DNA of 64,000 bases, taken from assembly GCA_052386335.1 (NCBI GenBank), contig JBQTKH010000015.1:3383-67382 (forward strand), read 5' to 3'. The notes beneath the pieces are model-generated. The model saw only the letters and a list, made by a program, of their open reading frames with translations, had not been told where the DNA came from and ran no database searches. This document shows, piece after piece, positions 41,210 to 58,700 of the stretch. Within the stretch, counting starts at the first letter, position 1. The number at the start of each line of letters is the position of its first letter. A program made the translations under genes and the position numbers. Source of the DNA: Microthrixaceae bacterium (GTDB lineage: Bacteria; Actinomycetota; Acidimicrobiia; Acidimicrobiales; VFJN01).

Positions 41210-41986
41210 TCATAGGAGCGGGAACACCTCGGAGATGATGAGCTCTGCTGCAGCATCGACGTCGTATCCCTCCGGCCACGATGTCACGAGGGGCACCAGG
41301 TCGTTGCGGAACGCCAACGTCGGGACTTTGTCCCGGAGGTTCTGCTCAGCCCGGGCACGTGTGTAGCCGTCCGGCCGGTACGGGGCGAAGCAGTCGACGA
41401 GGTCGGCGGCGGAGACACCGAGACGCATCATCGCGAGCCACAGGTCGAACAGGTCTCGGCCCTTCGATCGCTGGAAGAGCGCGCGGATCTTGGTGGCGAC
41501 GAGCTCCTCGAGGCTGAACGTCAGGACGTCAGCCGACGCTGCGTACCAGGGTGACTCGACGGCGAACGGCGCTCTGACGAGGCCACGGGCGGGTGATCGC
41601 TCGAAGGTGTTCACCTCCACCTTGATCCGCATTGTTCCGCCACCGGACTCGAACGGCGAGCGTAGGTAGATCTTGGGGTGTTGCCCGATTCGGGTCTGCA
41701 CGTCCATCCCGAGCCGTTCGCCAATGGCGGTGGCGGCCTGCGTGAGATCACGGATCCCGCCACCCGTGCGACGCACGTAGTCGAGGTCCTCGCTGTAGCG
41801 GTAGGGCCTGTCCGCGTACAGCTTGTGGAGGCACGTACCGCCGCGGAAGACAAGCTCCTCGCCGAGGTACGGGTCGTTCGCGATCTCGATGATGAGGCGC
41901 GACAGGAGCAAGTCCTGCTCGACCTGCTCCTCCGTCGCCCACCCGACGGAGGTGCCCCAGGCCGTGATGGAAGCGCGCGGGATCAC
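41210..41986 (-). CDS. abiEii: nucleotidyltransferase AbiEii/AbiGii toxin family protein (type IV TA)
   Basis: GTG at 41986 overlaps the abiEi stop (GTGA). LVFRGGTCLHKLY...YRYSEDLDY is the AbiEii NTase motif. Confidence 0.85.
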   Translation of the reverse strand: MIPRASITAWGTSVGWATEEQVEQDLLLSRLIIEIANDPYLGEELVFRGGTCLHKLYADRPYRYSEDLDYVRRTGGGIRDLTQAATAIGERLGMDVQTRIGQHPKIYLRSPFESGGGTMRIKVEVNTFERSPARGLVRAPFAVESPWYAASADVLTFSLEELVATKIRALFQRSKGRDLFDLWLAMMRLGVSAADLVDCFAPYRPDGYTRARAEQNLRDKVPTLAFRNDLVPLVTSWPEGYDVDAAAELIISEVFPLL

Positions 41987-42813
41987 AGGTCCGGCTCCAC
42001 GGCTCCGTTGACGATCACGTTCCACCGCTCATCGAGGTGGCCGCGCCGCGGGCCGTGCGCATCCAGCGGGGCGGGCGTGCCGCGCTTGCCAGCCACGTGG
42101 TGGAGGGCGTCGGTGTTGACGCTTGTCCCCACCTCGTTGGCCACAAAGTCCAGGAGCCACCCCGCCCGTTGGGATACCGACGTCGGGTAGGTGGTGGCGA
42201 CGTCGGCCAGCTGGTCGAGGTCGAGCGCCGTCTCCTGAACCATCTCCGCCAGGATCGTTGCCACGTTGGACAGGCCACCACTGTGGAGCGGCCGCGACAC
42301 GAGATCGAGGGCCGTTGCCTCCGCCGTGGACACCTGCATCGTTCCTGTCGGGGTGTTCCTGGTGATCGTCGGCCGGGAGCCCGCATCGGACGACGTAGCG
42401 AACGAGAGCTGCACACGACCGAAGGAACGATCCCGAAGACGCGCTGAGGTCATCACCTGGAACTGCTGAGGTCGCTGATGCGCGAACCCGTGAGCCTCAG
42501 CGGCCGTCAGGAGGCACACGTAGTAGTCGTGTCCGAGGTGACGCATGAGCGGGTCGATGAAATGCGACGCCGGAACAGCACCCCACGAGCGGTACTCCGG
42601 CGGGATCGGGACGTACACCCCCTTGGTCGGGCTGAACAGCAGCCCTCTGTCGCGCCAGCGCGCCAGCGACGGCGAGACGTGCGCTAGCGGCATCCCGAGC
42701 AGCGTCGCCGCCTGCTCGGAGGTGACCCAGTGCCTGCCCCTCGCGAGCAGCCAGTCCGCGAGATCACGCGGTCCATCAGGCCGGTCGGTGATGGTCGGGG
42801 TCATGTCGGCCAT
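41983..42813 (-). CDS. abiEi: AbiEi family antitoxin/transcriptional regulator
   Basis: 276-aa ORF. N-terminal winged HTH (VTSEQAATLLGMPLAHVSPSLARWRDRGLLFSPTKGVYV) plus a C-terminal AbiEi domain. It lies directly upstream of the AbiEii gene. Confidence 0.85.
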   Translation of the reverse strand: MADMTPTITDRPDGPRDLADWLLARGRHWVTSEQAATLLGMPLAHVSPSLARWRDRGLLFSPTKGVYVPIPPEYRSWGAVPASHFIDPLMRHLGHDYYVCLLTAAEAHGFAHQRPQQFQVMTSARLRDRSFGRVQLSFATSSDAGSRPTITRNTPTGTMQVSTAEATALDLVSRPLHSGGLSNVATILAEMVQETALDLDQLADVATTYPTSVSQRAGWLLDFVANEVGTSVNTDALHHVAGKRGTPAPLDAHGPRRGHLDERWNVIVNGAVEPDL

Positions 42814-42905: not shown

Positions 42906-43787
42906 CTACGGGCCAACGGGGCCCTCGCCACCCGAGAACCACCAGCCGTGATCCTCCCAACCCTTTGCGGTCGCGAACGAGAACACCCGCATCGGAGTGA
43001 ACGCGCTCACCACCCACACACAGTCGACCTCCGGCGGGAGAACCGCCGGCACGCCGGGCGGCCCCCTGTCCGGCTCAGCGCCAACCCCCGGAGCCATCTC
43101 GATGGTTGCAGGGCTGCTCTGGTCAGCCCAGATGAGCAGATGCGACGAGTCGCACCTGGCCTCCCTCAGTTTCCTGCGATTGCCTTCGTCGAGAAGGTGG
43201 GGCGTGATGGCATCTACGACTGGGTCGCGCGAGACCGCGCCGCCGGGCGGCGTGACATGAGGGTGGACGATGCCATGTCCGTCGGCTCCCGTCGGATCGG
43301 TTGGCATCACGGACCAAGCACCGAGGTCCCGCAGGGACTGGCAGATCGCGGCCAGGGCGCCGTGGCTACCTCGATTAGGAAGGGGCATCGCCCTTACCTC
43401 GCCGGCGAGCTCAAGCGCATGCAGCAACGCTGCCGCTCCTTGCCCGGCGGCCTTGAGGTCGGCCGTGATGTCAAGGCCTAGATGCCAGTCGTGCGCCAGG
43501 TGTGGACCGTCCCAATGCACCTTCTCGCTCGCCCCCACGGTCCGCCGCCAGGCGGGATCAGTCGCGATCGTGACCTCAATCGCGATCACCCGTCCGCTCG
43601 ACAGCGCGAGGTCGTAGTCGTGCACGGATGCGGGTCCCCCACCCGGATCCCGGCGTATGGGAGTTCCGCCGAGGATCGACGCAAGCAGCACCGCGGCCGC
43701 GTCCTCCTCGTCCCACGGCAGCATCTGCACCCCGAGAACCGTAGGGCCGCGGCGGTTGGCGCCCCCGAGGGATTTGTGTCGGGGCAT
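42906..43787 (-). CDS. hypothetical protein with a possible PD-(D/E)xK-like motif, downstream of the STAND NTPase
   Basis: ATG at 43787 (alternative 43724) in ORF 42906..43973. VHDYDLALSSGRVIAIEVT resembles a nuclease-fold core. It starts 40 nt downstream of the NTPase stop on the same strand. Confidence 0.45.
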   Translation of the reverse strand: MPRHKSLGGANRRGPTVLGVQMLPWDEEDAAAVLLASILGGTPIRRDPGGGPASVHDYDLALSSGRVIAIEVTIATDPAWRRTVGASEKVHWDGPHLAHDWHLGLDITADLKAAGQGAAALLHALELAGEVRAMPLPNRGSHGALAAICQSLRDLGAWSVMPTDPTGADGHGIVHPHVTPPGGAVSRDPVVDAITPHLLDEGNRRKLREARCDSSHLLIWADQSSPATIEMAPGVGAEPDRGPPGVPAVLPPEVDCVWVVSAFTPMRVFSFATAKGWEDHGWWFSGGEGPVGP

Positions 43788-43827
43788 CCGGTCGACCAAC
43801 GGCCGTACGGCCTCGAACACGGCGACC

Positions 43828-45246
43828 CTAGGAAGCCAGGTCGTCGAAGATGCTGCGCTCGCGACTGGGGGGCTGGGAAGGAGGCGCTTGCTCGTCCTCG
43901 CCCCTCCACTCAACTGCACCTTCATCGACTTCTGGGTTTGCGTGGCGCTCGAGCCGATGCCGCGCTGCTTCAACCTCGGGCCGATCTGGGTAGCGGCTCT
44001 CGTATCTGCTCAGCGACTCCTCCGCGTATGAGAGATCGCCCTCGGAGTTGCTGAGGTCTTCGGCGATTCGATCATCGAGCGCGTCGATGCCGGCGAGGAC
44101 GCGCCGATCGAGTTCATGAAGCTCTGTCGGACGGAAGAAGCTCATCCAGTCCTCATTCGCTAGGAACGAGCCGTCGAGACCGTCGGCTGCGTACTCGGTC
44201 AACGTCGCCACCAATCCTCGGCGATCGTCCTCGGTGGCGAGTTCCAGTCTGAGGAGCGTCGCTGCGAGCTGACGCTCGTTGAAGAAGGCGGTGACCTGAC
44301 AGCCGACGTCGAAGACCATCTCCACAAGGTCAGGCATCGCATCAATGATGGTTCTGAGAGCGCTCTCATCACACCGTCGTGCGAGGAACGGGAAAGCCAG
44401 CTTCTTCCACTCTGAAATCGAGCGCCACCCGTCAGTCGGCTTCGACCTGGTCAGCCGTTCAGCAAGCGCCCCGTAGAGAGAGCCGGGCACGATCAGCGCT
44501 CCCTCCAGGCCCACATCACCACACGTGACCGTTCTAACGAGTTCCTCCAGTCGAGCGCTCGCTACGAATTCCGCGAGTAGCTCCGGGTGGCCCGACAGCC
44601 AGAGCTGGTAGGCGTCGGTGAACGAAGGGTGATGGAACTGCCACCAGCGATCCTGACCGACAGAGACCAGCCGCAGCAGGCTGCCATCAAGCGCCGGAAG
44701 CGCCGCAATCGCGTTGGCAAGGGTCACGCCGACGCGACTTAGGAAATCAGCGTCGCCGGGCGACGCCACATAGGGACTCGGCAGTCGTCCGCCCCGGAGG
44801 TGGACAAGTCCCAGGGCCGCTCGCGAGGCGGCGTCGAGGTTGTTGAGCACCTCGAGCAGGAACTGCGTGGGCCGACGAATGAAGCCCAAGAGGCTTTGCT
44901 GATTCCGAAATTCGACACTCCGTGTGAAGAGCGGGTCGCCAAGTCGCCGGGCTAGTTCCGGCAGGAAGCGGGCATCCCGAGCTACGCCCTCAAGGTGAGC
45001 GATTGGTATCGCTCCCAGAAGGGAGGGCTCCTGGCGACCGAGGCGGAGATGGTTGTAGAGGATCTGTTCACGTTCCTCTCTGGTGAACGACTGGACCTCG
45101 ATGACGACGCTTGCCTCGTCGAGGAGTGGGAACGCGCTCACCTTCAGGTCGCTCCTCGCAGCGGCATAGACGTAGTCCCGTGAGGTCACGATGAATCGAG
45201 CGCCGCCGCGCAACGCGGCCCCCAGCAAGTTCGCTGCCTGGTTCAC
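43828..45246 (-). CDS. STAND-type NTPase, C-terminal part (post-Walker-B NTPase lobe, winged helix, helical sensor-like region)
   Basis: The 472-aa ORF starts at a GTG that overlaps the upstream stop (GTGA). RFIVTSRDYVY, REQILYNHL and WWQFHHPSFTDAY resemble the NTPase/WH modules of nSTAND/AVAST-like proteins. Confidence 0.6.
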   Translation of the reverse strand: MNQAANLLGAALRGGARFIVTSRDYVYAAARSDLKVSAFPLLDEASVVIEVQSFTREEREQILYNHLRLGRQEPSLLGAIPIAHLEGVARDARFLPELARRLGDPLFTRSVEFRNQQSLLGFIRRPTQFLLEVLNNLDAASRAALGLVHLRGGRLPSPYVASPGDADFLSRVGVTLANAIAALPALDGSLLRLVSVGQDRWWQFHHPSFTDAYQLWLSGHPELLAEFVASARLEELVRTVTCGDVGLEGALIVPGSLYGALAERLTRSKPTDGWRSISEWKKLAFPFLARRCDESALRTIIDAMPDLVEMVFDVGCQVTAFFNERQLAATLLRLELATEDDRRGLVATLTEYAADGLDGSFLANEDWMSFFRPTELHELDRRVLAGIDALDDRIAEDLSNSEGDLSYAEESLSRYESRYPDRPEVEAARHRLERHANPEVDEGAVEWRGEDEQAPPSQPPSRERSIFDDLAS

Positions 45247-46052
45247 GCATTCGAAGTCGTGGACTCGTACTGCGTTGCGCCGAAGCCATCATCCAGCCAG
45301 AAGAACTGATCCGTCTCCCGCGGGTTCCATCGATCCTGAAGATCCTCGATGCGCGCCAGCTTGACCGGCCGCGCTCCGTACTGATCCATCGCACCCAGCG
45401 CGAGGCTGGCAGCGATCGAGCTCTTCCCGGATCCCGCCTCTCCTAGCAGCAACGCGAAGCGGTGCTCTCGGAGCGCTCGGTGAGCCGCTCGGTGGGCCTC
45501 GACGGGAACCAGCCGAGCCAGCTGGTCGTGCATCATCGCGAGAATGGATTCGGCTTGCTCGTAGGCCCGCTCGTCGAGAATCTCCGTTAGGTCGCCTAGC
45601 CCATAGAGCCGAGGAACAAGAGCGCGAAGGGCCTTGTGCTCGGTCAGCAGCTCACAAATCGCCTCGTATCCGAGAATCCGAACCTGATTCACGCCGGCGG
45701 AACGGAAAGCCCTCTCGATCGCCTCCGCCGAGGTGCCCGTCAGCCGATGGTTCGTCATCAGGACATAGAGGCCGCACCGCCCAGCGCTCGCGTGCTTCTT
45801 TGCCTTTTCGACATCATCGGCGACGTCCGAGAGCGACAGGTGCGCTGATTCGTTCGACGTGTGCTTGCACTGAAGGATCGATGGCACACGAGATGAACCG
45901 TCCTCCCACGGCCCGTAGAACGCGCCATCGCGTCCCCCATCGGGCCCGCGCGAATAGGCCTCGACTGGCTGTTGCCAGACCTCACGGCAGACGGTCCGAC
46001 ACAACTGCTCGAACGAGAACCAGCCCAACTGGTGAAGCTCAAACTCGAGCAC
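45243..46052 (-). CDS. Mrr-like restriction endonuclease domain fused to a P-loop NTPase N-terminal part (Walker A and B)
   Basis: GPDGGRDGAF...ILQCKH is an Mrr_cat-like D..D..QxK core. Walker A is LLLGEAGSGKSS and Walker B is FFWLDDGFG. The ORF stops right after Walker B. Confidence 0.65.
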   Translation of the reverse strand: MLEFELHQLGWFSFEQLCRTVCREVWQQPVEAYSRGPDGGRDGAFYGPWEDGSSRVPSILQCKHTSNESAHLSLSDVADDVEKAKKHASAGRCGLYVLMTNHRLTGTSAEAIERAFRSAGVNQVRILGYEAICELLTEHKALRALVPRLYGLGDLTEILDERAYEQAESILAMMHDQLARLVPVEAHRAAHRALREHRFALLLGEAGSGKSSIAASLALGAMDQYGARPVKLARIEDLQDRWNPRETDQFFWLDDGFGATQYESTTSNA

Positions 46053-46458
46053 AGCGAAGTCTGCCAGACACGCGTCATCGCCGGTTCACGACCTGAGCCG
46101 TCCGAGCCCTCCCCGCGACACGACGTGTCAAGGGGGACCGCCGCCGATCGTCGATTACTCCGCTGGCGGTCTGCCCATCGCCGAGGCGACCGAACACGCC
46201 CACATCGAGTTCCATGTTGTGAGCGCGCCGTTGGGCACGGGACCGCCGTTCGGCATCGTGGCCATCCGGCAGATCCTGTGACGGCTCGGTCTCAGACGGA
46301 GTCCATCCGCACGAGCTGACGCGGGATGCACACCCCGACGGCGCAGTCGGGCCGACGGGGCCCGCGCGCGCCGGGAACCTACAAGGCAGCGGGCCACCCG
46401 GGTGTATCCTCGACGCCACGTGGTTCCAGGCAGTGGAACCGACAACCGAGGAGTGCCG

Positions 46459-47868
46459 ATGCGGATCTTGAAATCCGTTACCCCAAGCGCCGAGCAGCTG
46501 AAGGTGCTCGGCGACGTCAAGCCCGGCTTCCGGCTGATCCGAGGAGCTGCAGGCAGTGGCAAGACCACCACCGCGCTGTTGCGCCTTCGGGAGCAGACTG
46601 AGACTCGCCTGAACCGGCGGGAACGCTTTGGCCACGACGCGCCGGTGAGAGTCCTAGTCCTGACGTTCAACCGGACCCTCGAGGGCTACATCACGGAGCT
46701 CGCCCACAAGTCCACGCCGCACAACGAGGCGCTGGAGCTGGAGATCAAGACCTTCAGCCGGTGGGCGCGGTCGCTCGTGGGGCAGGTCGACATCCTTGGC
46801 CGGGACCAGGCCGCGGCAATCCTTCGCCCTCACTTCGAAAGGCTCATTGGGTCGAAAAACCTCGAGTACTTCGTCGACGAGATCGAATACATCCTCGGGC
46901 GGTTCGACCCGTCCGACATGAGCCCCTACGCCACCGTCCTTCGGGAGGGTCGGGGCAACGCTCCCCGTGTCGAGCGCTCGCTCCGCGAAGCCTTGTTGAC
47001 CGAGGTGATCCCCGCCTACGAGGCGGAGAAGGCCAGGCGCGGCATGATCGACTGGAACGACCTGGCTTTGCTCGCGAGAACAGCTGAGCCGGGCCTGCTC
47101 TACGACGTGGTGATCGTCGACGAGGCGCAGGACTTCTCCGCCAACCAGGTGCGGACCGTTTTGCAGCACCTCCAGGAGAGCCACAACACGACGTTCGTGC
47201 TCGACGCTGTCCAGCGCATCTACCCCCAGTCGTTCAAGTGGGCCGAGGTTGGCATCAACGCTCGACCGGAGATCATCCACACGCTCGCGGCCAACTACCG
47301 CAACACGGCCGCCATCGCCGCGTTCGCTCGGCCGCTCGTGGATGGCCTCCCGCTTGAGGACGACGGCACGTTGCCCGACTTCAGCGTCTGCGACCGGCCG
47401 GGGACCAAGCCGATCGTCGTCACGGGCAAGTACAGCGCTCAGTTGCGGGTGATGCTCGACGAACTCGAGCGAACGGTCGACATGAAGGAGGAGTCCATCG
47501 TCATCCTCCAGCCTCGCGGTGGCGGTTGGTTCGATGAGGCCCGCAAGGCTCTCCGCACCCGGAGCATCCACTTCTGCGAGCTCACCCGGCAGAACGAGTG
47601 GCCGACCGGACCTGAGGTGGTCGCCCTGTGCACGATCCACTCCGCCAAGGGCCTCGAGTTCGATCATGTGCTCCTTCCGGGCCTGAGCCAGCAGGTCACG
47701 CCTCACGGTCCGGATCAGGAGGACGGGGATCTGCAGAAGCTCCGCCGCATGCTGGCCATGGCCGTCGGCCGTGCCCGCAATTCGGTGATGGTCGGTTACA
47801 AGCCTGGCGAGGAGTCGTCCCTGATCGGCCTCCTTGATCCGTCGACCTACAAGTTGGTGGAGGCGTGA
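46459..47868 (+). CDS. UvrD-like SF1 helicase (short, ~469 aa)
   Basis: ATG at 46459 in ORF 46402..47868. Motif I is RGAAGSGKTT and motif II is VIVDEAQDFS. ANYRNT and TIHSAKGLEFDHVLLPG are also present. Confidence 0.85.
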   Translation: MRILKSVTPSAEQLKVLGDVKPGFRLIRGAAGSGKTTTALLRLREQTETRLNRRERFGHDAPVRVLVLTFNRTLEGYITELAHKSTPHNEALELEIKTFSRWARSLVGQVDILGRDQAAAILRPHFERLIGSKNLEYFVDEIEYILGRFDPSDMSPYATVLREGRGNAPRVERSLREALLTEVIPAYEAEKARRGMIDWNDLALLARTAEPGLLYDVVIVDEAQDFSANQVRTVLQHLQESHNTTFVLDAVQRIYPQSFKWAEVGINARPEIIHTLAANYRNTAAIAAFARPLVDGLPLEDDGTLPDFSVCDRPGTKPIVVTGKYSAQLRVMLDELERTVDMKEESIVILQPRGGGWFDEARKALRTRSIHFCELTRQNEWPTGPEVVALCTIHSAKGLEFDHVLLPGLSQQVTPHGPDQEDGDLQKLRRMLAMAVGRARNSVMVGYKPGEESSLIGLLDPSTYKLVEA

Positions 47869-48557
47869 TGACGATGACATGGGCACCGGAGGCAGCCCCG
47901 AAGGCCGCAGACGAGGCGATCGCGGGCGAACCCCACCCGGAGGTTGTGGAGGCAGCGGTCGCCCGTGACATCACGAGCGTCGTGCATTTCACCCGGACAA
48001 CGGGGCTGAAAGGGATCGCGGGATCGGGTTGCGTCAAGGCACGCCGAGATCTGCCGTCTGATGACCTTGTGAAGTACGTCTACTCGGAGAACGCTGCAGA
48101 CCGTTCGCGCGACTTCTCCTGGCTGGGCTACATCAACCTGTCGATCACTGCCATCAACCCGTCGATGTTCGAAAGTTCTAGGGGGTGGCATCCCAATGAC
48201 GAGTGGGTCATCCTTCGTTTCTCCCCCGACATCCTCGGAGACCCTGGTGTCGTGTTCTGCACCACGAACAACGCGTATCCAGTTGCGCACCGCGCTGAGG
48301 GCCTTCCCGGTTTCGAACAGATGTTCGCCCCTGCGGTACCGTGGGGGAAGTTTGGATCGACGGTGACACGGAGTGGCAAGCCCGACAGCCGGACGACCTG
48401 CCCGCAGGCGGAGGCGCTGTACCCGTTCGAGCTCGAGCTCGACCGCCTTCACACGATCACCGTTGGCGACGACGACACCTACGAGACGACCTACGCGATC
48501 TTGAGCAACTTCGACATCAACCCCAACATCGAACTCGACCCAGGGGCATTCGCATGA
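47865..48557 (+). CDS. DarT-like (DUF4433-like) ADP-ribosyltransferase
   Basis: 230-aa ORF whose ATG overlaps the helicase stop (ATGA). It has an H-F-T motif (SVVHFTRTTGL), INLSITAINPSMF, VVFCTTNNAY and a QAE catalytic-Glu context (CPQAEALYPFE), as in DarT toxins. Confidence 0.65.
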   Translation: MMTMTWAPEAAPKAADEAIAGEPHPEVVEAAVARDITSVVHFTRTTGLKGIAGSGCVKARRDLPSDDLVKYVYSENAADRSRDFSWLGYINLSITAINPSMFESSRGWHPNDEWVILRFSPDILGDPGVVFCTTNNAYPVAHRAEGLPGFEQMFAPAVPWGKFGSTVTRSGKPDSRTTCPQAEALYPFELELDRLHTITVGDDDTYETTYAILSNFDINPNIELDPGAFA

Positions 48558-50191
48558 ACGCGCGTAATACGAAGTCCCAGGGCGACCTCTTCACTACCAT
48601 CGACGGCCGACTCGCTCGCACCACCTCCTCGATGGTGTGGGCCGCGTACGCCGACGCCATTGGCTTCATCAGCGAGCTCGTCGACGAGAAGGGTCTGCTC
48701 CGGCGCACGAAGGGCGCCGCTGCGCTTGACGTGGCTATTTCCTGGAGGCGCCGCGTGGGGGGTCGCGGAGGCGTTGACGCCGTGCTCCCCGCCGGCTGCT
48801 GGTCAGACGACACGCAGCTCCGAATGGCCGTAAGCCGCACGCTCGGACCCCGCGGGTTTGATGTAGAAGCCTTCGCCAAGGTCGAACTGCCGGTGTGGCC
48901 CGCGTACGCGCTCGGCGGCGGCCGCGCATCCAAGGCAGCGGCCGGCAACCTCAGCAAGGCGGAGGTTCGTTGGTACGCGAACACGTTCGACGGCTGGACG
49001 AATGCAGGAGGTAATGGTGCCGCGATGCGGATCCAACCTCACGTCTGGGCCGCCGCTGACCTCGAGCACGGCTATCAGCAGGATGTTGTGGCGGATGCCG
49101 TAGTGACCCACGGTCACCCGCGGGCGATCGTCGGTGCCCTCTTCCATGCTGGGACGCTGGCGCACACCCTTCGATCGCACGACGCGCTCAACCTCAACGC
49201 GTGCTTGGAGATCGCCGCCGAGGTCAATCACGCTTTGAAGGTCTTCGACGACCACCGCCACCTTGGTGAAACCTGGTGTGGCCTGTGGGAACAGGCCACC
49301 GGTCGGTCGTTCTCTGATGAGTGGCGGTCCACCGTGGATGAACTCTCGGTCGCCATTGACCTCGCGATGGGGCCTTCCGGTCCGAGTCAGGATCTCAAGT
49401 CGGATTACCTCTCCATCGTCGACCGCCTCGGGCTTCGTGACCCTGAGCAGCGCGGGAGCGGACTGCTTACGCCGGTCGCAGCGGCTGCACTCGCCGGCCT
49501 GGCTCCGAACACCAACAGCGCCGTCCTGGTTGCGGTGAACGCGTTGGGCACCGATACAGACACGATCGCCACGATGGCTGCAGCGATCCTGGGCGCTCGG
49601 TGGCCGGAGGTGTCACCAGAGATCCAGCCGATCGACTCGGCATACCTCGCGGCCGAAGCAGAGCGCCTGGTCGCGATCTCGAAGGGTGAGGAGGTGGAGT
49701 GCCAGAGCTACCCTGACCTACTGACGTGGACTGCACCGGTGACGCAGGCCGATGCTCTTGTTCAGCACCATGACCAACTCGTGGTCGAAGGGCTCGGCGT
49801 CGTGTCCGAGGACGAGCGACCGATCGTCTGGACCGGCAAGCACGACTTCGGCTGGCAGTGGGTCATCACGAGCTTTGGACAGTCCCTGTTGATCAAGCGG
49901 CGGCCAACGCTTAGAACCCTCGGAGCGTCGAACACGCTCGCTCCCCCGCCGTCACCGCCCACGGTCGCGCGCAAGAGCGGCTCAAAGGACCGCCAGGCTG
50001 ACCGTACCGATACGGGGACGCCGATCCCGATCGACCGCGGGGTGAACCTCGACGGAGCCATCGAGCATGCGATCCACAACATCGGTGATGACCAGAAGCT
50101 TGGCTACACGTTACGCCGGGTCGCCCGAGACGGGACTTTCGCTGATCTCGTCGCGTTCGTGACCGCACTGCGAGACGAGCTCAGACGCTGA
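48554..50191 (+). CDS. ADP-ribosylglycohydrolase (ARH/DraG family) with a ~170-aa C-terminal extension
   Basis: ATG at 48554 overlaps the DarT-like stop (ATGA). ARH motifs are AYADAIGF, CWSDDTQL, GGNGAAMRI and LGTDTDTIATMAAAILG. No macrodomain-like segment was noticed. Confidence 0.8.
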   Translation: MNARNTKSQGDLFTTIDGRLARTTSSMVWAAYADAIGFISELVDEKGLLRRTKGAAALDVAISWRRRVGGRGGVDAVLPAGCWSDDTQLRMAVSRTLGPRGFDVEAFAKVELPVWPAYALGGGRASKAAAGNLSKAEVRWYANTFDGWTNAGGNGAAMRIQPHVWAAADLEHGYQQDVVADAVVTHGHPRAIVGALFHAGTLAHTLRSHDALNLNACLEIAAEVNHALKVFDDHRHLGETWCGLWEQATGRSFSDEWRSTVDELSVAIDLAMGPSGPSQDLKSDYLSIVDRLGLRDPEQRGSGLLTPVAAAALAGLAPNTNSAVLVAVNALGTDTDTIATMAAAILGARWPEVSPEIQPIDSAYLAAEAERLVAISKGEEVECQSYPDLLTWTAPVTQADALVQHHDQLVVEGLGVVSEDERPIVWTGKHDFGWQWVITSFGQSLLIKRRPTLRTLGASNTLAPPPSPPTVARKSGSKDRQADRTDTGTPIPIDRGVNLDGAIEHAIHNIGDDQKLGYTLRRVARDGTFADLVAFVTALRDELRR

Positions 50192-50239: not shown

Positions 50240-50785
50240 GTGTCCAGATTTGAGTGGCGCGAAGGGGAGGTCGTCATCCACGAGCTGACCGAGTCACCGC
50301 GGGATCGCAAGCGCGCCGAGGCAGTCAGGGCGAGGGCAGCGGGTTGCGCCGACGCGTGCGTCGCGCTTCTCGCCATCCCTGATGTCGACGACCGGGTCAT
50401 GCGCAAGATGCTCCTGACGCTGACCCGGCTCGCTACCCGTCCGAAGTGGCGTAACGAAATCAAACTGCGATCGGCCGGCGCTCTCGACGTCAACTGGGCC
50501 GACGCCCGAGCTGGTGGCGATCCGCTGCACATCGAGCACGTCGTGCCCGTACGCGTCCTCGTTGAGCGGATGCTCACGTGCCACGACGAGCCAGCCGAGG
50601 TGTTCGCCATCTCCGTGCTCGCGGTCTGTCGGAAGTCGGAACACGAACGGATCGGACCGCTGCTCAAGAATCATGGCGACGTCTACGAGCAGATGATCGA
50701 CCCGACGACGCCTCTCTCAGCACTCCCCGGCTTGGGCCGCCTCCGCTACGTACGCGCCGAGATCGGTCTGCACGAGGTCGCATAG
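50240..50785 (+). CDS. hypothetical protein with a His-Me-finger/HNH-like LHIEHVVPV motif
   Basis: 181-aa ORF starting 48 nt after the ARH gene on the same strand. The DPLHIEHVVPVRVLVERML motif resembles HNH/DUF1524-type nucleases. Unverified. Confidence 0.45.
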   Translation: MSRFEWREGEVVIHELTESPRDRKRAEAVRARAAGCADACVALLAIPDVDDRVMRKMLLTLTRLATRPKWRNEIKLRSAGALDVNWADARAGGDPLHIEHVVPVRVLVERMLTCHDEPAEVFAISVLAVCRKSEHERIGPLLKNHGDVYEQMIDPTTPLSALPGLGRLRYVRAEIGLHEVA

Positions 50786-51021: not shown

Positions 51022-52791
51022 CTAGGTCTGGGGTGTGGCGCGCTTGCGGAGACGCCGATCTCGGTACCAGGGACGAAGGCGGACGTGAGCCGGTGGCAGG
51101 GTGCCATGGATGAGCAAGGCGTCGCCCGGATGCATACGGCGGAGCGTTGCCGACGGGACGAGGGGAACGGTTGCCACGCTGTTCTCGCGCGTGCCGTCGC
51201 CCTGGCTCGTGCCATCGCTGAGACGAGCGGGCAGGTGCTCTTCCCCGAGGAGACGGCTGACGTAGTCGAGGCCCGGTGAGTCGGTCATGCCGGCGTAGAA
51301 GAGCTTGCTGAGATGGTTGGTCAGGATCCCCTGCGCGTGGCGACCGTAGGCAGCCTCGATCTGGCTGACGGACTGCCAGGCCGTCACGAGTTGGACGCCG
51401 ATCCCCGACAACGTGGCCGCCCAAGAGGGCAGCTGGTCGGGCCGGAGGATGGCCGCCTCATCCATCACGATGAGCAGCGGAGGATCCAGAGGCTTGTTGG
51501 TCCTGACGTACCGCTCGAAGGCCTGGCCGACGAGGTCGTTGAGCATCCCGCCGAGCACCGGGCGCAGCCGATGCTGATCGGCGACCGGCGCACAGACGTA
51601 GAGCGTGTTCGGGCCCGACATCAGCCAGTCGAGGTCGATCGTTGAACCCGCGGACGCTGCGGTTACGAGCGGGTCGACCCAGGGCCACACCATCGTGCGG
51701 GCGGTGGCGTAGACAGACGAAACCGTGCGAGCGTCGTTCCGCCACAGGCCCTCGAGGACCATCGACGCGAACTGGCCCGCTTCCTTCCGGCTCGGGTCGG
51801 AGTCGGCCTTCAGCGCCCGGATGAGCGGCGGCACCTCGCCGACGAAGCCCTCGACCGGCATGTCGGTCGAGAGGACCCACCGGACCACGTCGGCGAAGGT
51901 GCGGCCCTCGGTGTTGGCGGCCACGTTGAGCAGAGCGGCCAGAAGGCTCTCGGCCATCTGGCTCCAGAAGTCGGACTGCTCGCCTTGGGTGCGGGGGGCG
52001 GCCTCAGTGAGCGACCGTGCGGCCCGCACGGCACCCGAAGAGGTGGCGGCGGCTCGGAGAGGCGTCCACGTGGCGGTCGGATGCCCGGTGACCCCGCTCG
52101 GGTCGAACACCTGGACCGCACCGGCAGCCGCTCGCCACTGACCGGTTGCACCGAGCAGGTCGGACTTGACCGAGCACAGCACCGCCGGTCCCTCCCAATC
52201 GAGGATCCCTCCGATGGCCGCCGTCGTCTTCCCCGAGCGCGTCGGTCCGATGAGCGCCACCGCTCCCCTGCCGGCGTGCCGCCCTCGCCGTCGACGTGGC
52301 GCCGTCGTTCGCTCGGTTGCAACGATTCGACGGCCGACACGACCGAGGACGAACCGCCCGGGCTCCGGGCGACGAACGGTGAGCGCACGAAGGTCAGAGG
52401 GTCGAGCGATCCGGCCAGTGGCCGGGACTCCGAGGCGGCTCCGGCGGTCGAGCGCCTCCCTCCCTCCACCAGTCACGCGGACGACCACCAAGCCGGCCGC
52501 CGCCACGGCGACGATCACAAGCGCCGTCGCCAACCAGTACGGGGTCGCACCCGGCAGCTCGGCTCCTACTGCCGCCGGCCAGGCCAGCCGCGGTTCTCCG
52601 GCATGAGATGGCAGCTGCGCAAGGGCCTGGAGGGCATCTCCGAGGCTGATGTCGACGAACTCGCCGCCGTGCAGGAACGCCGCAAGCTGAGCTCCGGCCC
52701 ACACCGCGGCGCTCAGCGCTGTCCCGGCGACGATGCACACCTCGAACGCGCCGAACGACTGCCTCTCCTGATCCATCGTTGCTCCCTTCAT
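51022..52791 (-). CDS. type IV coupling protein (TraG/VirD4/TraD family)
   Basis: 589-aa ORF with two N-terminal TMs, Walker A GPTRSGKTT and Walker B LLIVMDEAA. Its start overlaps the relaxase stop. Confidence 0.85.
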   Translation of the reverse strand: MKGATMDQERQSFGAFEVCIVAGTALSAAVWAGAQLAAFLHGGEFVDISLGDALQALAQLPSHAGEPRLAWPAAVGAELPGATPYWLATALVIVAVAAAGLVVVRVTGGGREALDRRSRLGVPATGRIARPSDLRALTVRRPEPGRFVLGRVGRRIVATERTTAPRRRRGRHAGRGAVALIGPTRSGKTTAAIGGILDWEGPAVLCSVKSDLLGATGQWRAAAGAVQVFDPSGVTGHPTATWTPLRAAATSSGAVRAARSLTEAAPRTQGEQSDFWSQMAESLLAALLNVAANTEGRTFADVVRWVLSTDMPVEGFVGEVPPLIRALKADSDPSRKEAGQFASMVLEGLWRNDARTVSSVYATARTMVWPWVDPLVTAASAGSTIDLDWLMSGPNTLYVCAPVADQHRLRPVLGGMLNDLVGQAFERYVRTNKPLDPPLLIVMDEAAILRPDQLPSWAATLSGIGVQLVTAWQSVSQIEAAYGRHAQGILTNHLSKLFYAGMTDSPGLDYVSRLLGEEHLPARLSDGTSQGDGTRENSVATVPLVPSATLRRMHPGDALLIHGTLPPAHVRLRPWYRDRRLRKRATPQT

Positions 52792-55247
52792 CGTTCATGC
52801 CCTGGCGGATCCAGGACGTCGACGGCCGCTGTCTTCGCGCCGCTGCGCCCGAGCGCGGTGCTAAACGCGGCGATGGGGTCGACCGTCGGGCCGAATCCGT
52901 GGCCCCCGTCCCGATCGGGGGCGACGAGGTAGAGCTGGTTCTGCTTCTTGCCGCGGGTGAGGCTCGTGTAGCCGGTCTCGATCGTGAAGCTGTCGTCGCC
53001 GAGGACGAAGACGCGGTCGTAGGTGGCGCCCTGGCTCTTGTAGATCGTCGCCGCGTAGCCGTGGGTGAGGTGGCCTGCCTCCAGGTAGGCGAGCGGAAGC
53101 TCGACGAAGCGACCCTCATCCAGCTGGATCAGCAGGCCGTCATCGGTCAGCGAGTGGGCGACACCGTGGTCGTTGTTCAAGATCCCGAGCCGGTAGTCGT
53201 TGCGATGGGCCAGCACTTCGTCCCCGACTGCGAACTCCACGCCGTCCACCTCGACGAGCGCCTCGCCGATCTCGCCGTGACTGAGGCGCATCTCGCGGGC
53301 CCGAGCGTTGAGGTCGGCGACCGCTGAGCGGTGGGACGCGATCATCACGGCGTTGTCGCCGCCGCACCGTGAGGTGTACCAGTCGCCGACGAGGCCGTCG
53401 CGGAGCACGTCGGCGTTCGAGGCGGTGGTGATCCCACCGTGGCGTTCGAGCCGAGTCATCGCCTGATCGACCTGCCTCGTGCGCAGCTCCTGAGCGACCG
53501 CTCGCTCGTCGGGGTCGAGCTGTCGTCGGTTCTCGACGAGCTCCTCGTAGCCGAGGCGATCGGCGACGCTCGAGAACAGCCCGCCGGCGCCGATCTCGGG
53601 CAGCTGCTTCGGATCCCCGACGAGCACGACCTTTGCCCCGACCGTCCGCGCCTCGCCGATGACGGCGGCGAGACGACGAGTTCCGATCATGCCGCTCTCG
53701 TCGACGATGACCACGGTTCGATCGGTCAGCTCTTCTCGGCCCTGGGAGAGTCGGAGCAGCAGCCGGTCGGCGGTCTGGCTCGGGATGCCGGCGCCGTGCC
53801 GCAGCTCGCTGGCCGCCTTGGCGGCGAGTGCAGTCCCTACCACGCGGTACCCGTCGGCCTCCCAGGCCTCCCGTGCGGCATCGAGACAGAAGGTCTTTCC
53901 GGTGCCGGCCGGGCCGATGAGCACGTCGACGGCGTTCCCAGAAGTGACGAGAGCGTGAACAGCCCGACGCTGGTCATCGCCGAGGGACGGACGGGCGGCG
54001 AGGCTGGCTTCGACGGCCCCATCGCCAACGACGCCGCAACCGCTCCCCTGGCCATCGAGGGCCACAGCGATCGCCTGTCGCTCGATCTGGAGCATCTCGG
54101 GCGTGGTCCAGCGGCTGTCCGACACGACCACGGCGGACTCCGACGCAAGGAAGGCGTCGGTTCGCTCTTCGATGGCGACCAGCGCGGCACCCTGGGTCGC
54201 CGCTTGGGCGATGGCGCGGACGACGTCTCGACGCTCGAACGTGGCGTGCTGTTCGGTGACGCGCGCCGCCAGCTCCGAGTCGTCGACGTCGATCGCAGGA
54301 GTTCGTGGAAGGCGAGCGAGATCATCGACGCTGAAGCCGAACGGCTCCGCGCGTGCCGCCCACCGATCTCGAAGCTCCCCCTCGGGGACGTGTTCGGTCT
54401 TGGCTCGCCGCGTGTCGAGGGTGGCGGCCTGCGCGCCCTTCGCCGAGTGCGCGCCATGCCGCTCCATCGAGGCGACGATCTCCCGACGACGGCCACTGAA
54501 CTCCTCGCGCAGCGACTTGGGCACGCCGGCCACGTCGGCGTACCCCTGCTCGACCTCCTCGAAGAGCAGGCCTACCGAGCGAGCCAGCTCGTCGCGCAGG
54601 ACGGCCTGGTAGACGAACCCGGCCGTGCGGGCGTGGCGGTAGACGTGACGGGAGTCGAGGGCGGTCCACCGGCCGTCGTCCCCCTGGGCCAGGTTGGCGA
54701 CGAGAACGTGCGTGTGGAGCGCCGGGTCGGCGAGGCGGCTGGTCCGGTGCCGGAACCCGGCCGCCGCGAAGCCGCTTCCTTCGATCACCTCTGCGCCGGC
54801 ATGGCCGCGCCGGACGTGGCACGCGTAGCGCTCGAGGTAGGTGATGGCGGCGTCCACCGCCCGCTCGTGGCAGTCGACGACGGTCGCAGCCATGTCGGCA
54901 TCACCGAGGCCCCAGACGATCGACACCGACTTCGGCGCCGACAGCGTGAGGTCCAGCCCCGGCACGCTCGCGTTCGTGGCGCGCAGCGGCGCGCCCGTGG
55001 TCGGGTGGACCCCGGAGAGGACGGCGCGCAGATCCTCGGCGCCAACGACGCCGTCGAGCCCGAGGCCCCTTGCTGCCGTGCCGAGCCATCGGCCGGGCGC
55101 TTCGCCGGCGTCGAGGTAGTAGTCCTCGGCTCCGTCGAGGACCTCGGCCAGGTAGTACGCCTCCTGGCCGAGGCTGAGCTTGCCGATGCTCAGCACGACG
55201 AGCGACGCCTGCCGGGCACCCTGGTGCAAGTGTGTGGAATCGTCCAT
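52788..55247 (-). CDS. MobF family relaxase with C-terminal SF1 helicase (TrwC/TraA-like)
   Basis: ATG at 55247 (alternative GTG 55196) in ORF 52788..55493. The N-terminus LSIGKLSLGQEAYYLAEV...DYYL...GEAPGRWLG and HTHVLVAN match a MobF relaxase. Helicase Walker A is LIGPAGTGKTF and Walker B is VVIVDESGM. Confidence 0.85.
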   Translation of the reverse strand: MDDSTHLHQGARQASLVVLSIGKLSLGQEAYYLAEVLDGAEDYYLDAGEAPGRWLGTAARGLGLDGVVGAEDLRAVLSGVHPTTGAPLRATNASVPGLDLTLSAPKSVSIVWGLGDADMAATVVDCHERAVDAAITYLERYACHVRRGHAGAEVIEGSGFAAAGFRHRTSRLADPALHTHVLVANLAQGDDGRWTALDSRHVYRHARTAGFVYQAVLRDELARSVGLLFEEVEQGYADVAGVPKSLREEFSGRRREIVASMERHGAHSAKGAQAATLDTRRAKTEHVPEGELRDRWAARAEPFGFSVDDLARLPRTPAIDVDDSELAARVTEQHATFERRDVVRAIAQAATQGAALVAIEERTDAFLASESAVVVSDSRWTTPEMLQIERQAIAVALDGQGSGCGVVGDGAVEASLAARPSLGDDQRRAVHALVTSGNAVDVLIGPAGTGKTFCLDAAREAWEADGYRVVGTALAAKAASELRHGAGIPSQTADRLLLRLSQGREELTDRTVVIVDESGMIGTRRLAAVIGEARTVGAKVVLVGDPKQLPEIGAGGLFSSVADRLGYEELVENRRQLDPDERAVAQELRTRQVDQAMTRLERHGGITTASNADVLRDGLVGDWYTSRCGGDNAVMIASHRSAVADLNARAREMRLSHGEIGEALVEVDGVEFAVGDEVLAHRNDYRLGILNNDHGVAHSLTDDGLLIQLDEGRFVELPLAYLEAGHLTHGYAATIYKSQGATYDRVFVLGDDSFTIETGYTSLTRGKKQNQLYLVAPDRDGGHGFGPTVDPIAAFSTALGRSGAKTAAVDVLDPPGHER

Positions 55248-55311
55248 CTGGTCCGGACGGACATGACGAACCGGGACGAGCGGCTCGACAGACTCACGGG
55301 ATCGATGGCGG

Positions 55312-55524
55312 TCACGCGCTGGTGCCGGCGCCGCCGACCTGCAGGTAGCGCTCGATGGCTGCCCGCGGGACCCGGATGGTGCGACCCAGCCGGATGACCG
55401 GGAGCCCCGCTTCGCCATTTGACGCAAGCCAGGCATGGGCGAGTTCGTAGGCGGCGGATCGCGAGATCCGGAGGATGCGGGCAGCTTCCTCAACTCGAAG
55501 GAATGGGGGCAGCTGCTCAGTCAT
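55312..55524 (-). CDS. excisionase-family helix-turn-helix DNA-binding protein (Xis or relaxosome accessory)
   Basis: 70-aa ORF. FLRVEEAARILRISRSAAYELA...IRLGRTIRVPRAAIERYL is the MerR-like excisionase HTH pattern. Confidence 0.8.
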   Translation of the reverse strand: MTEQLPPFLRVEEAARILRISRSAAYELAHAWLASNGEAGLPVIRLGRTIRVPRAAIERYLQVGGAGTSA

Positions 55525-55716
55525 GAGGTCGTCTCCTGGGGGTGCCGACTCGGCGGTTACCTACATAGGCCCTCTTTGGCCGCCGGACATCGCGTTACTG
55601 GTGAGACAGATTGCGATTCCCCGGACCTTGGTAAGCCCCGTAGGGGGGCCGTTCCCCGGCCCGACTTCGGCCCAATGCAAGACTCCCGGGATGGCCGAGC
55701 TGAGGGGTGGCGTGGA

Positions 55717-58700
55717 GTGACGGCGGTCGAGCAGGTGCTGGCCGACATCCGCGACATCGCAACGGACGAGCACGACAAGGGCGATCGCTTTGAGCGCCTG
55801 ATGCTCCACGCGTTTCAGACCGATCGCACCTTCCAGCAGCAGTTCACCGAGGTGTGGCGGTGGATGGACTGGCCGGGTCGGAGCGGTGCGGACATCGGCG
55901 TCGACCTCGTCGCTCGCGACGCCGAAGGCCATCTGATCGCCATCCAGTGCAAGTGTTATGCCCCGACGGCGACGCTCACGAAGGAGGAGATCGACTCCTT
56001 CGTCGCCCTCTCGGGTCAGAAGCAGTGGTCTCGCCGGATCATCGTGGCCACCACCGATCTGTGGTCGGCCAACGCTGAGAAGTCCCTCGAGGGCCACGCC
56101 GTTCCGGTCGAGCGCATCGGCATCGACGACCTCGACGCCATGACCGTCGACTGGTCTTCCTACGACGTCGCCAACCCGTCAGGTCTCAAGGCGACCGCCC
56201 GCCACGAGCTGCGACCGCATCAGGTCGAGGCCGTCGACGATGTACGGACCGGCTTCGCAACGGCGGACCGGGGCAAGCTGATCATGGCCTGCGGAACCGG
56301 CAAGACCTTTACGGCGCTGCGCATCGCCGAGGAGCACGCCGGCGCCGGCAAGTCGGTGCTCTTCCTCGCGCCGTCGATCGCCCTCGTGGCTCAGTCGCTG
56401 AGGGAGTGGACCGCGGAGTGCACGGTGCCGATCCGGCCCTTCGCGGTCTGCTCCGACCCTACGGCGGGCAAGCCGATCGAAGGCGAGAACGCCACACCGC
56501 ACGACCTGGTCGTGCCGCCTACGACTGACCCGGAGGCTCTCATCGAGGCGGGCGTGCACAAGCTGCCCGCCGACGAGATGACGGTGGTGTTTTCGACTTA
56601 CCAGTCGATCCAAGTCGTCGCTGACATGCAGAAGGCCACCGGGCACACCTTCGACCTCGTGGTGTGCGACGAGGCGCACCGCACTGCCGGGATCGCCAGC
56701 GTCAAGGGCGAGGACAGCGCCTTCGCCCTGGTGCACGACAACGCCATCGTGCCCGCGACGAAGCGGCTCTATATGACCGCAACCCCGAAGCTGTTCAAGC
56801 CAATGGCCGTCGATGCGGCCAGGGAGCAGGACGCCATCCTCGCCTCGATGGACGAGCCCGAGTTCTTCGGAGAGGAGTTCCACCGGCTGGGCTTCGGCGA
56901 GGCCGTCGAGCAGGGGCTCCTCGCCGACTACCGGGTGCTGATCCTCACCGTCGACGAAGCGGCGGTCAGCGAATCGTTCCAAGACCTGCTCTCCACGAAC
57001 GGCGAGCTGAGCCTGCCCGATGTGGCCCGCTTCGTCGGCTGTCTCTCCGGCCTGGCGAAGCTGCCAGGCGCTGCCGGCGCAGGCTTTGCCGGTGACGAGC
57101 CCGCCATGCAGCGAGCGGTGGCGTTCTGGTCGAAGATCGCCGACTCGGAGCGCTTTGCCGAGCAGTTTGAGCAGGTTGCCGATGCGTACTTCGACCAGCT
57201 CGAGGCGGGCCCCGGTGGCGAGCAGATCAGGCCTCTGGCCGTCCCGACCCGCCACGTCGATGGCACCACGAAGATCAGCAGCCGTCGCACCGACATCCGC
57301 TGGCTCAAGGAGACGCCACCCGAGGGCGTGTGCCGGGTGCTCACCAACGCCAAGTGCCTCACCGAGGGCGTCGATGTGCCAGCGCTTGACGCGGTGATGT
57401 TCCTCACGCCTCGGCGCTCGAAGATCGACATCGTCCAGGCCGTCGGCCGGGTGATGCGCAAGCCGCCGGGCAAGCAGCTCGGCTACGTGATCCTCCCGAT
57501 CGCCATCACCGCCGGGCTCGACCCTGCGACCGCCCTCGATAAGAACACCGACTACGACGCCGTGTGGGAGGTGCTCCAGGCGCTGCGGGCGCACGACGAG
57601 CGCTTCAACGCCTACATCAACCGCATCGCCCTCGGCTCCACAAAGCCGGGCACGGGTCCGGACGACAAGGTCCAGGTGATCCCCGTCGACCTCGTCGGCC
57701 CCGACGGCGTTCCCGACGTCCAGGGTCGGCTGTTCGAGTACGAGGCGTGGACGAACGCGATCTACACGAAGATCGTTCAGAAGGTCGGCTCCCGCACCTA
57801 CTGGGAGGACTGGGCCCGCGACGTCGCCGCCATCGCCGCTCGCCACGAGGCTCGCATCAACACCATCCTCAGCAGCCAGCCGACGGCGGCGGCCGCGTTC
57901 GACGAGTTCCTCGCCGAGCTCCACGCCACGCTCAACGACAGCATCAGCCGTGACGACGCCGTGTCGATGGTGTCGCAGCACCTCATCACCCGGCCGATCT
58001 TCGAGGCACTGTTCGGCGACGACGCGTTCGGCCGGGCCAACCCCGTGTCCCTCGCCATGAGTGGGATCGTCGCCGTGCTCGACGAGCACCAGCTCCAGAC
58101 TGAGACCGAGCAGCTCGACGACTTCTTCGCCTCGATCCGCCGCCGGGTCGAGGGCATCCATCCCGACGACGGCCAGGCCCGCCAGCAGATCATCAAGGAT
58201 CTCTACGGGCGCTTCTTCAAGATCGCCTTCCCCAAGGTGGCCGACTCCCTCGGCATCGTCTACACGCCGCTCGAAGTGGTCGACTTCATCATCCGGGCCA
58301 CCGAGGCCGCGCTCGCCGAGCACTTCGACGGCGCCAGCCTCTCCGACGAGGGCGTGCACGTGCTCGACCCCTTCACGGGGACCGGCACCTTCATGACCCG
58401 CTTGCTGCAGTCCGGCTTCATCAAGCCCGAGGATCTCGATCGCAAGTTCGCCGGCGAGCTACACGCCAACGAGATCTTGCTCCTGGCGTACTACATCGCC
58501 GCAGTGAACATCGAAGCCACCTACCGCCAAGAACGGGCCCGGCAGACCGGCGCAGATCCCGGCTACGAGCCGTTCCCCGGTGTCGTGCTCACCGATACCT
58601 TCCAGCTCGGCGAGGCCGCCGACGGCACGGGCCAGTGGGACGTGTTCCCAGTGAACAACGAGCGGGCGACGAAGCAGAAGGCCCTCGACATCCGCGTGAT

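Follow-up and report, generated by a model that had tools for sequence, protein, structure and literature searches.

A helicase-DarT-ARH cassette and its published counterpart

The window analysed here was a 64,000-nucleotide stretch of DNA from a Microthrixaceae bacterium (Actinomycetota, Acidimicrobiia; GenBank assembly GCA_052386335.1, contig JBQTKH010000015.1 of 176,629 bp, positions 3,383 to 67,382 of the forward strand). It carried a cassette of three genes encoding, in this order, a UvrD-like superfamily 1 (SF1) helicase, a DarT-family ADP-ribosyltransferase and an ADP-ribosylglycohydrolase (ARH), which are called darH, darT and darG3 below after the published system DarHTG (Table 1). 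The list of open reading frames (ORFs) placed them on the same strand at 46402/46459-47868, 47865-48557 and 48341/48554-50191. A first-pass annotation, made from the letters of this DNA alone, had already read the genes as an SF1/UvrD-like helicase, a DarT and an ARH/DraG-family protein with a C-terminal extension of ~170 aa and no macrodomain. The ORFs and motifs that it quoted were all present in the translations, and the three assignments were borne out by Pfam matches for each protein, by matches of the DarT model to DarT1 and DarT2 structures and by structure searches with the ARH model.

The start of darH was placed at ATG 46459, which had GGAG 7 nt upstream; GTG 46402 was rejected because the alignment with the E. 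coli homologue began at residue 1. At the first junction (GGAGGCGTGATGACGATGAC), the helicase stop codon TGA at 47866-47868 overlapped two candidate starts of darT. The first of them, GTG 47865, produced a 4-nt overlap with the helicase gene, while ATG 47868 produced a 1-nt overlap and matched a 229-aa NCBI protein of the same metagenome-assembled genome (MAG; 100% identical). A third candidate, ATG 47874, corresponded to the MTWAPEA N-terminus of many homologues, and the coupling of the helicase and DarT genes was preserved under any of the three. Both junctions had earlier been described as 4-nt ATGA overlaps; this was correct for 48554-48557, whereas 47865-47868 reads GTGA. Promoter and terminator consensus scans gave nothing informative in this high-GC sequence.

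The same architecture has been published as Liu-DS3 or TgaH-DarTG in December 2025 (bioRxiv 10.64898/2025.12.08.692795) and as DarHTG in April 2026 (NAR 2026 54(6):gkag308; PMC13069673). In that system, DarH (TgaH) was a UvrD-like helicase without a 2B domain, the toxin was a DarT, and the antitoxin DarG3 resembled archaeal and eukaryotic ADP-ribosylglycohydrolases (PMC13069673). DarHTG defended E. coli against T4, T7, T5 and SSL_2009a; mutants of the DarT active site and of the DarH ATP site lost protection, and a DarG3 mutant could not be constructed or cloned (PMC13069673). Fewer than 0.5% of E. coli genomes carried it, its abundance was highest in Thermodesulfobacteriota and Bacteroidota, and its target was not reported (PMC13069673). 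Our literature search found no other names for such a system besides those in the NAR paper and its preprint.

A distant DNA search with a Vibrio trio identified 21 of 5,426 complete E. coli genomes with a homologous trio, the only helicase-DarT-ARH operon among them. Megablast with the E. coli trio returned the same 21 genomes, all with at least 99% identity, which corresponded to a single allele at a frequency of 0.39%; every copy was chromosomal. This frequency matched the published <0.5% and thus supported the identity of the two systems. In NZ_CP021722.1, the trio was flanked by insertion sequence (IS) elements and integrases and began with the helicase, annotated as a 465-aa "3'-5' exonuclease", which was followed by a 221-aa DarT and a 561-aa ADP-ribosylglycohydrolase. 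The window proteins aligned with the E. coli ones over their full lengths: DarH with WP_000699006.1 (41% identity, E=8e-127), DarT with WP_000151475.1 (37%, E=4e-43) and DarG3 with WP_001087212.1 (34%, E=7e-92, including the C-terminal extension).

Both trios had the same three genes in the same order, with a 2B-less helicase, a DarT and an ARH carrying a long C-terminal extension, and both were located in a mobile-element or defence-island setting. The cassette differed in its host (Actinomycetota, Acidimicrobiia; GC ~65%), in an extra conserved N-terminal segment of ~35 aa in its DarT and in its gene overlaps of 1-4 nt, where the E. coli genes had gaps of 0 and 9 nt. On this evidence, the cassette was very probably a Microthrixaceae member of DarHTG, namely an actinobacterial anti-phage system of the toxin-antitoxin (TA) type on a mobile defence island. 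The suggestion of the first-pass annotation that the system was undescribed was therefore overtaken by the literature, where it had been named, although it was not named in PADLOC-DB v2.0.0 (2023). This database had no model for the trio, matching DarT weakly (1.5e-7), the helicase by generic GajB and NERD+UvrD profiles and the ARH not at all, so that the trio would falsely appear novel if scanned with this version. In NCBIfam, too, none of the three proteins had a model of its own. The toxin/antidote logic of the first-pass annotation agreed with the mutant phenotypes of the E. coli orthologue (PMC13069673); both its interpretation of the sequence and its functional reasoning proved correct and foreshadowed the published experiments.

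The first-pass annotation had also proposed to check whether the trio recurs in other genomes. With the DarT alignment as query, we searched a single genome of each GTDB species, obtained 197 confirmed relatives and searched the best 80 loci for the window helicase and ARH by tblastn. The helicase, DarT and ARH were full length and in the same order and strand in ~76 of these 80 loci, an arrangement far beyond chance; the exceptions were truncations or insertions (L026, L035, L045, L046, L054 and L058). The hosts among the best 80 loci spanned at least six phyla. They included Actinomycetota (Acidimicrobiia, Micromonospora, Nocardioides, Nocardia, Pseudonocardia, Saccharopolyspora), Gamma- (Vibrio), Beta- (Burkholderia, Azonexus) and Alphaproteobacteria (Pelagibacterium), as well as Acidobacteriota, Spirochaetia, Chloroflexota and Planctomycetota. 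The helicase was the best conserved protein of the trio (within Acidimicrobiia roughly 65-76% identity, compared with 52-61% for DarT and ~51-59% for the ARH). Of 79 related loci, 55 had a 4-nt overlap between the DarT and ARH genes, and at least 38 had one between the helicase and DarT genes. Sequence searches with the single proteins retrieved 209 cluster representatives for DarT (E<=1e-3) and 2,629 for the ARH (E<=1e-10).

No conserved fourth gene was found, since no flanking family occurred in more than 11 of 81 loci. We also weighed a 181-aa ORF at 50240-50785 (+), which followed the ARH gene after 48 nt and had a good third-position GC (GC3) bias, as a possible fourth component. It was dismissed because none of the 80 related loci contained a homologue and because it lacked Pfam, PADLOC and NCBIfam matches; it appeared to be an orphan. 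Together, the absence of a recurrent flanking family and the orphan state of the downstream ORF indicated that the conserved unit was exactly three genes, and the three genes with their start/stop overlaps formed a complete conserved module.

Several loci departed from the common pattern. In L035, an insert of ~3.2 kb separated the helicase from DarT, and in L001/L082 the ARH gene was broken (271-aa call). One Spirochaetia MAG had two copies of the trio (L056/L057).

Table 1. Cassette genes, junctions, protein domains and neighbouring genes, in window positions
Feature	Position	Strand	Description
Helicase-DarT-ARH cassette	46459-50191	+	three tightly packed same-strand genes
darH	46459..47868	+	469-aa UvrD-like SF1 helicase without 2B subdomain
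Helicase/DarT junction	47865..47870	+	GTGATG; GGAGG at 47859-47863
darT	47868..48557	+	229-aa DarT-family ADP-ribosyltransferase
DarT/ARH junction	48554..48557	+	ATGA start/stop overlap
darG3	48554..50191	+	545-aa ADP-ribosylglycohydrolase, putative antitoxin
ARH catalytic domain	48596..49681	+	aa ~15-376; motifs E41, S84-D85-D86-T87, D334-T335-D336-T337
Conserved DarG3 segment			aa 386-403; YPD-L-W-P-QAD-LV, invariant, precedes the beta domain
Small beta-strand domain of DarG3	49757..49900	+	aa 402-449; pLDDT ~90
Disordered Pro/Ser-rich linker of DarG3	49931..50038	+	aa 460-495; pLDDT below 50
C-terminal three-helix bundle of DarG3	50048..50185	+	aa 499-544
AbiEi antitoxin/AbiEii nucleotidyltransferase toxin	41210-42813	-	Pfam 2.5e-32 and 7.6e-30
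Mrr_cat-nSTAND3 gene	43828-46052	-	PADLOC PDC-S73, 3.7e-25; split by frame change
T4 coupling protein	51022-52791	-
TrwC relaxase(-helicase)	52788-55493	-
Type ISP restriction-modification enzyme	55435-60603	+	1,722 aa
HNH protein	60749-61642	+
ApeA-like HEPN protein	62788-63756	-	below-threshold ApeA_NTD1 / HEPN_Apea, E ~4e-4 and 1e-3

Domains and predicted active sites of the three proteins

DarH matched the Pfam families UvrD-helicase (3e-10) and UvrD_C (2e-11, last ~60 profile positions only). It contained a Walker A motif (GAAGSGKT), motif II (DEAQD), motif IV (NYRNT) and motifs V/VI (HSAKGLEFD and VGRARN). In the alignment with PcrA, residues 23-257 of DarH corresponded to PcrA 25-259 and residues 385-444 to PcrA 556-616, and ~170 PcrA residues from the region of the 2B subdomain had no match. 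By these features DarH was a UvrD-family helicase without 2B and with an intact ATP-binding site, as in DarHTG. Its best PADLOC matches were NERD+UvrD (2.6e-22) and GajB (4e-19). Gabija GajB, PADLOC C3a187 NERD+UvrD and Nhi/AbiO resembled DarH in using a compact UvrD-like SF1 ATPase as a defence component. However, the cassette had no GajA (OLD/TOPRIM) partner, NERD or nuclease domain, and the matches covered the helicase core only. PADLOC found no GajA beside DarH, where the neighbours were DarT and a split Mrr-nSTAND3 gene, and the locus was not classified as Gabija.

The second protein matched Pfam DarT (PF14487) with 2e-20 over profile positions 2-200 of 201, and its AlphaFold2 (AF2) model had a predicted local distance difference test (pLDDT) score of 89. 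DarTs were the sole structures retrieved by Foldseek with this model at E<1e-5. The best match was DarT1 of E. coli C7 (8BAQ), with template modelling (TM) scores of 0.72/0.79, while DarT2 structures gave 0.55-0.66 (Thermus 0.61/0.66; M. tuberculosis 7YK3 0.55; Thermosipho). DarT1 was also the only solved DarT matched by sequence (E=5e-12, identity ~22-26%); DarT2 chains gave no sequence match to the cassette DarT even at E<=10.

We then mapped the DarT family profile onto DarT1 8BAQ, the chain numbering of which equals the paper's numbering plus 1, and took residue roles from Schuller et al. 2023 (PMC11543638). The H-F-T motif of DarT1 (H17/F18/T19) corresponded to H40/F41/T42 of the window DarT; H17 and T19 contact NAD+ and F18 contacts the nicotinamide (PMC11543638). 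The NAD+-contacting R35 (PMC11543638) corresponded to R59. DarT1 M71, which is essential and likely stabilises the oxocarbenium intermediate, and F72, which stacks on the nicotinamide (PMC11543638), were represented by M100/F101. The catalytic E152 aligned with E182 in the PQAE motif, so that the H-F-T/R/E active site, which the first-pass annotation had proposed to check, was present. At the position of the H-Y-E Tyr, DarT1 S63 corresponded to S92, and the guanine-coordinating N104 corresponded to N134. Thus, the Ser and Asn of the DarTG1-type active site were both found in the cassette enzyme. All mapped residues were invariant or nearly so in the DarT family. H40/F41/T42, S92, N134 and E182 were also invariant in a five-sequence alignment that included the E. 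coli and Ralstonia trio DarTs, a Sphingopyxis DarT and a bona fide NADAR-linked DarT1. In addition, an invariant Arg/Asp pair (R79/D82) fell within the NAD+-binding loop, at the approximate position of R52/D54 in DarT1.

Residues 1-35 of DarT (47868-47975) formed a conserved extension, M-x-W-A-P-E-A-x-P-Q...C-P-E-V-V-E-A-A, that was predicted to be partly helical. It was common to the closer relatives, mostly Acidimicrobiia, absent in the E. coli DarT and outside the alignments to more distant DarTs. No DarT homologues were found in 50,697 phage records.

Judged by its sequence, the cassette DarT resembled DarT1 at all mapped positions that bind NAD+, serve in catalysis or contact the base. 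Thymine-specific DarT2 has His119 in place of the guanine-coordinating N104 (PMC11543638). Since DarT2 was undetectable by sequence and the base-contact position held Asn rather than His, guanine-N2, not thymidine, was probably the target of the cassette enzyme. The thymidine-type chemistry implied by the first-pass annotation was therefore probably wrong, and the database name "ssDNA thymidine ADP-ribosyltransferase" was probably misleading for this protein. With DarTG2 systems (Thermus, M. tuberculosis, enteropathogenic E. coli), the cassette shared the toxin fold and the logic of a toxin paired with an antitoxin that removes ADP-ribose. It differed from them in having a helicase and no macrodomain DarG, and in Asn and Ser replacing the base-contact His and the H-Y-E Tyr. 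DarTG1 of E. coli C7 provided the closest solved toxin, with shared H-F-T, Arg, Ser, M-F, Asn and Glu residues, but its antitoxin was NADAR instead of ARH and it had no helicase gene. NADAR (PF22397) was not detected in the three genes or their neighbours, while a true DarTG1 (Klebsiella p6) scored 2.7e-87; the closest non-trio DarT, found on plasmids, was NADAR-linked. T4 escapes DarTG1 via its own NADAR protein, AdfN, yet was restricted by DarHTG, which spoke against a simple equivalence with DarT1 systems.

DarG3 matched Pfam ADP_ribosyl_GH (6e-24) over residues 30-350, with the last ~170-190 residues unmatched, and had no Pfam match to a macrodomain or NADAR. Its AF2 model (pLDDT 84.5) retrieved archaeal MJ1187 (TMt 0.81) by Foldseek, followed by ARH3, ARH1, DraG, Tri1 (6DRE) and Lmo0067. 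The metal-site motifs were invariant across 29 homologues and aligned with TDDT and DTD(S/T) in ARHs of known structure (MJ1187, Lmo0067, Tri1, DraG). The antitoxin thus had an ARH fold instead of a macrodomain or NADAR, in agreement with DarHTG. In DraT-DraG, Tre1-Tri1 and Lmo0066-Lmo0067, an ARH-fold hydrolase similarly reverses the product of its cognate ADP-ribosyltransferase, but those transferases modify proteins, do not belong to the DarT family and have no helicase. The NCBIfam model of DraG (TIGR02662) scored DarG3 at 19.8 bits against a cutoff of 337, and the partner here was DarT, so that the cassette was not a DraT/DraG pair.

According to the AF2 model and the alignment, the 169-aa C-terminal extension of DarG3 consisted of four parts: the conserved segment, the beta-strand domain, the linker and the helix bundle. 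The extension matched no Pfam family even at E<=10. The bundle helices (499-508, 513-526 and 529-544) were modelled with pLDDT 86-88, and the bundle was retained in the E. coli DarG3; on this structural model it was a candidate partner-binding or DNA-binding module. The C-terminal domain of the DarTG2 DarG binds its toxin, which provides a precedent for such a function of the DarG3 extension. Some relatives carried other modules in place of the bundle. For example, a divergent helicase-DarT-ARH trio with 4-nt overlaps was observed on a Ralstonia solanacearum megaplasmid (AP024098.1, 2499-6483). In its ARH extension, a Glyoxalase/bleomycin-resistance-like domain replaced the beta domain and the helix bundle, and this domain swap indicated that the C-terminus of DarG3 was modular.

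Proposed mechanism and its alternatives

We propose that DarT would act as the toxin, using NAD+ to ADP-ribosylate bases of single-stranded DNA (ssDNA) and thereby blocking the replication of phage (and host) DNA. DarG3 would be the antidote, its di-metal active site removing adducts in uninfected cells, and it may also hold DarT through the C-terminal beta domain and helical bundle. DarH would be an obligatory, ATP-requiring third part. It would most likely translocate on or unwind DNA, either feeding ssDNA to DarT or sensing phage replication intermediates, and the start/stop overlaps would keep the three proteins co-expressed. We infer that DNA is the target, that guanine-N2 is the likely modified atom, that the ARH reverses the modification enzymatically and that the helicase acts in this way. 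The corresponding questions, namely which base is the target, whether an ARH erases a base adduct and what the helicase does, concern the published DarHTG rather than this window.

A more specific version of this scheme is possible, and we advance it tentatively. Within a DarT1-like lineage, DarG3 might be the first ARH-fold eraser of a DNA-base adduct, acting most likely on guanine-N2, or on a linkage distinct from the DarT1 and DarT2 products. It might thus represent a fourth solution to DNA de-ADP-ribosylation, with the helicase serving as a phage-sensing or ssDNA-feeding trigger via the C-terminal modules of DarG3. The activity of DarG3, if enzymatic, would be new biochemistry.

Several points weighed against the proposed identity and function. 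The E. coli trio was equated with Liu-DS3 by its uniqueness, architecture and frequency, not by accession. The experimental evidence for defence came from the E. coli orthologue and not from an actinobacterial member, and the function given to the helicase is a proposal for the E. coli system as well. On the side of the antitoxin, efficient removal of base-linked ADP-ribose is not known for any characterised ARH: human ARH1 was inactive on thymidine-ADP-ribose, ARH3 had only low activity on thymidine- and uridine-ADP-ribose nucleosides, and ARH-like proteins of Streptomyces were inactive on uridine-ADP-ribose. Finally, the split nSTAND3 neighbour suggested that parts of the island may be decaying.

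The substrate range of the ARH family also bears on whether DarT modifies DNA at all. It could instead target RNA or a protein, such as a phage or host replication protein or the helicase itself, with the ARH removing the linked ADP-ribose. The characterised ARHs act on Arg- and Ser-linked ADP-ribose of proteins, with at most low activity on thymidine- or uridine-linked ADP-ribose. Moreover, the immunity proteins Tri1 (6DRE) and Lmo0067, which act on protein-linked ADP-ribose, were among the structural neighbours of DarG3, and the publications on DarHTG name no target. Nevertheless, the two DarT subfamilies with known biochemistry both act on ssDNA bases, the residues that hold NAD+ and guanine in DarT1 were invariant in the cassette DarT family, and the partner was a DNA-type SF1A helicase. 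We consider an RNA or protein target quite unlikely.

Another possibility to be weighed was that the cassette, like M. tuberculosis DarTG in an earlier proposal, regulates replication or the response to DNA damage in a housekeeping-like manner instead of serving immunity. Reversible DNA ADP-ribosylation is reported to control replication and transcription in M. tuberculosis (PMC12170906), and the host of the cassette was likewise an actinobacterium. Such a role was highly improbable for the cassette, given its patchy distribution across phyla, its presence in 0.39% of E. coli genomes and its mobile-element or defence-island setting. Furthermore, DarT was not of the M. tuberculosis DarT2 type, matching 7YK3 by fold only (TM 0.55) and not by sequence.

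If the cassette is a DarHTG member, as we believe, then the name of the system and an experimentally validated E. coli representative were already known. What our analysis added was a large Acidimicrobiia/Actinomycetota clade, with DarHTG abundant in these groups and also present in phyla that the NAR paper does not highlight, together with the predicted DarT1-like (guanine-side) specificity of the toxin and a domain map of the DarG3 C-terminus. The Acidimicrobiia clade provides divergent material for studying the biochemistry of DarHTG.

The mobile defence island around the cassette

The first-pass annotation had placed the cassette inside a defence island, and this was supported by the AbiE, Mrr-nSTAND3, Type ISP restriction-modification, HNH and ApeA-like genes nearby (Table 1). 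The Mrr_cat-nSTAND3 gene consisted of two ORFs overlapping by GTGA at 45243-45246, which divided the Pfam nSTAND3 match into profile positions 2-86 and 93-154; this arrangement suggested either a pseudogene with a frameshift or a mistake in the assembly. The longest Type ISP ORF overlapped the start of the relaxase gene by ~58 nt. The ApeA-like gene at the window edge may be another defence gene, while the ORFs at 61639-62745 and 42906-43973 had no family match. The GC content was 63-67% over 40-52 kb and 58-64 kb, compared with ~70% elsewhere in the window. The defence island, in which the T4 coupling protein and TrwC relaxase genes also lay, was located on a conjugative or mobilisable element.

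This location raised the question of whether the cassette mainly serves as an addiction or stabilisation module of that element, with phage defence secondary or absent here. The trio was ~830 bp from the T4 coupling protein gene, with the TrwC relaxase gene nearby, in a region with GC below its surroundings, and plasmid-borne relatives occurred in Salmonella, Streptomyces, Cereibacter and Ralstonia. On the other hand, phage defence by the E. coli orthologue depends on DarT and on ATP binding by the helicase (PMC13069673), and simple addiction needs no helicase. The 21 E. coli copies were without exception chromosomal, as were most of the fetched related loci, and some were adjacent to restriction or PIN genes; the families next to related trios included PLD-helicase, methyltransferase, PIN and EVE genes. 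An addiction module in this sense was unlikely, and the two roles are not mutually exclusive.

On a Sphingopyxis plasmid (NZ_CP102386.1, 3120-4576), DarT overlapped an upstream Toprim/DUF7146 gene and had no adjoining ADP-ribose hydrolase gene, which may represent another DarT pairing. An E. coli-type trio was present both in the Salmonella plasmid pIndS104-CTX and in the chromosome of E. coli AR_0128 with the same neighbours, namely IS100kyp upstream and a large opposite-strand gene on the other side. The latter encoded a 1,300-aa P-loop NTPase in E. coli and a hypothetical protein of equal length in Salmonella. The shared neighbours on a chromosome and a plasmid pointed to a recent horizontal transfer of the whole block.

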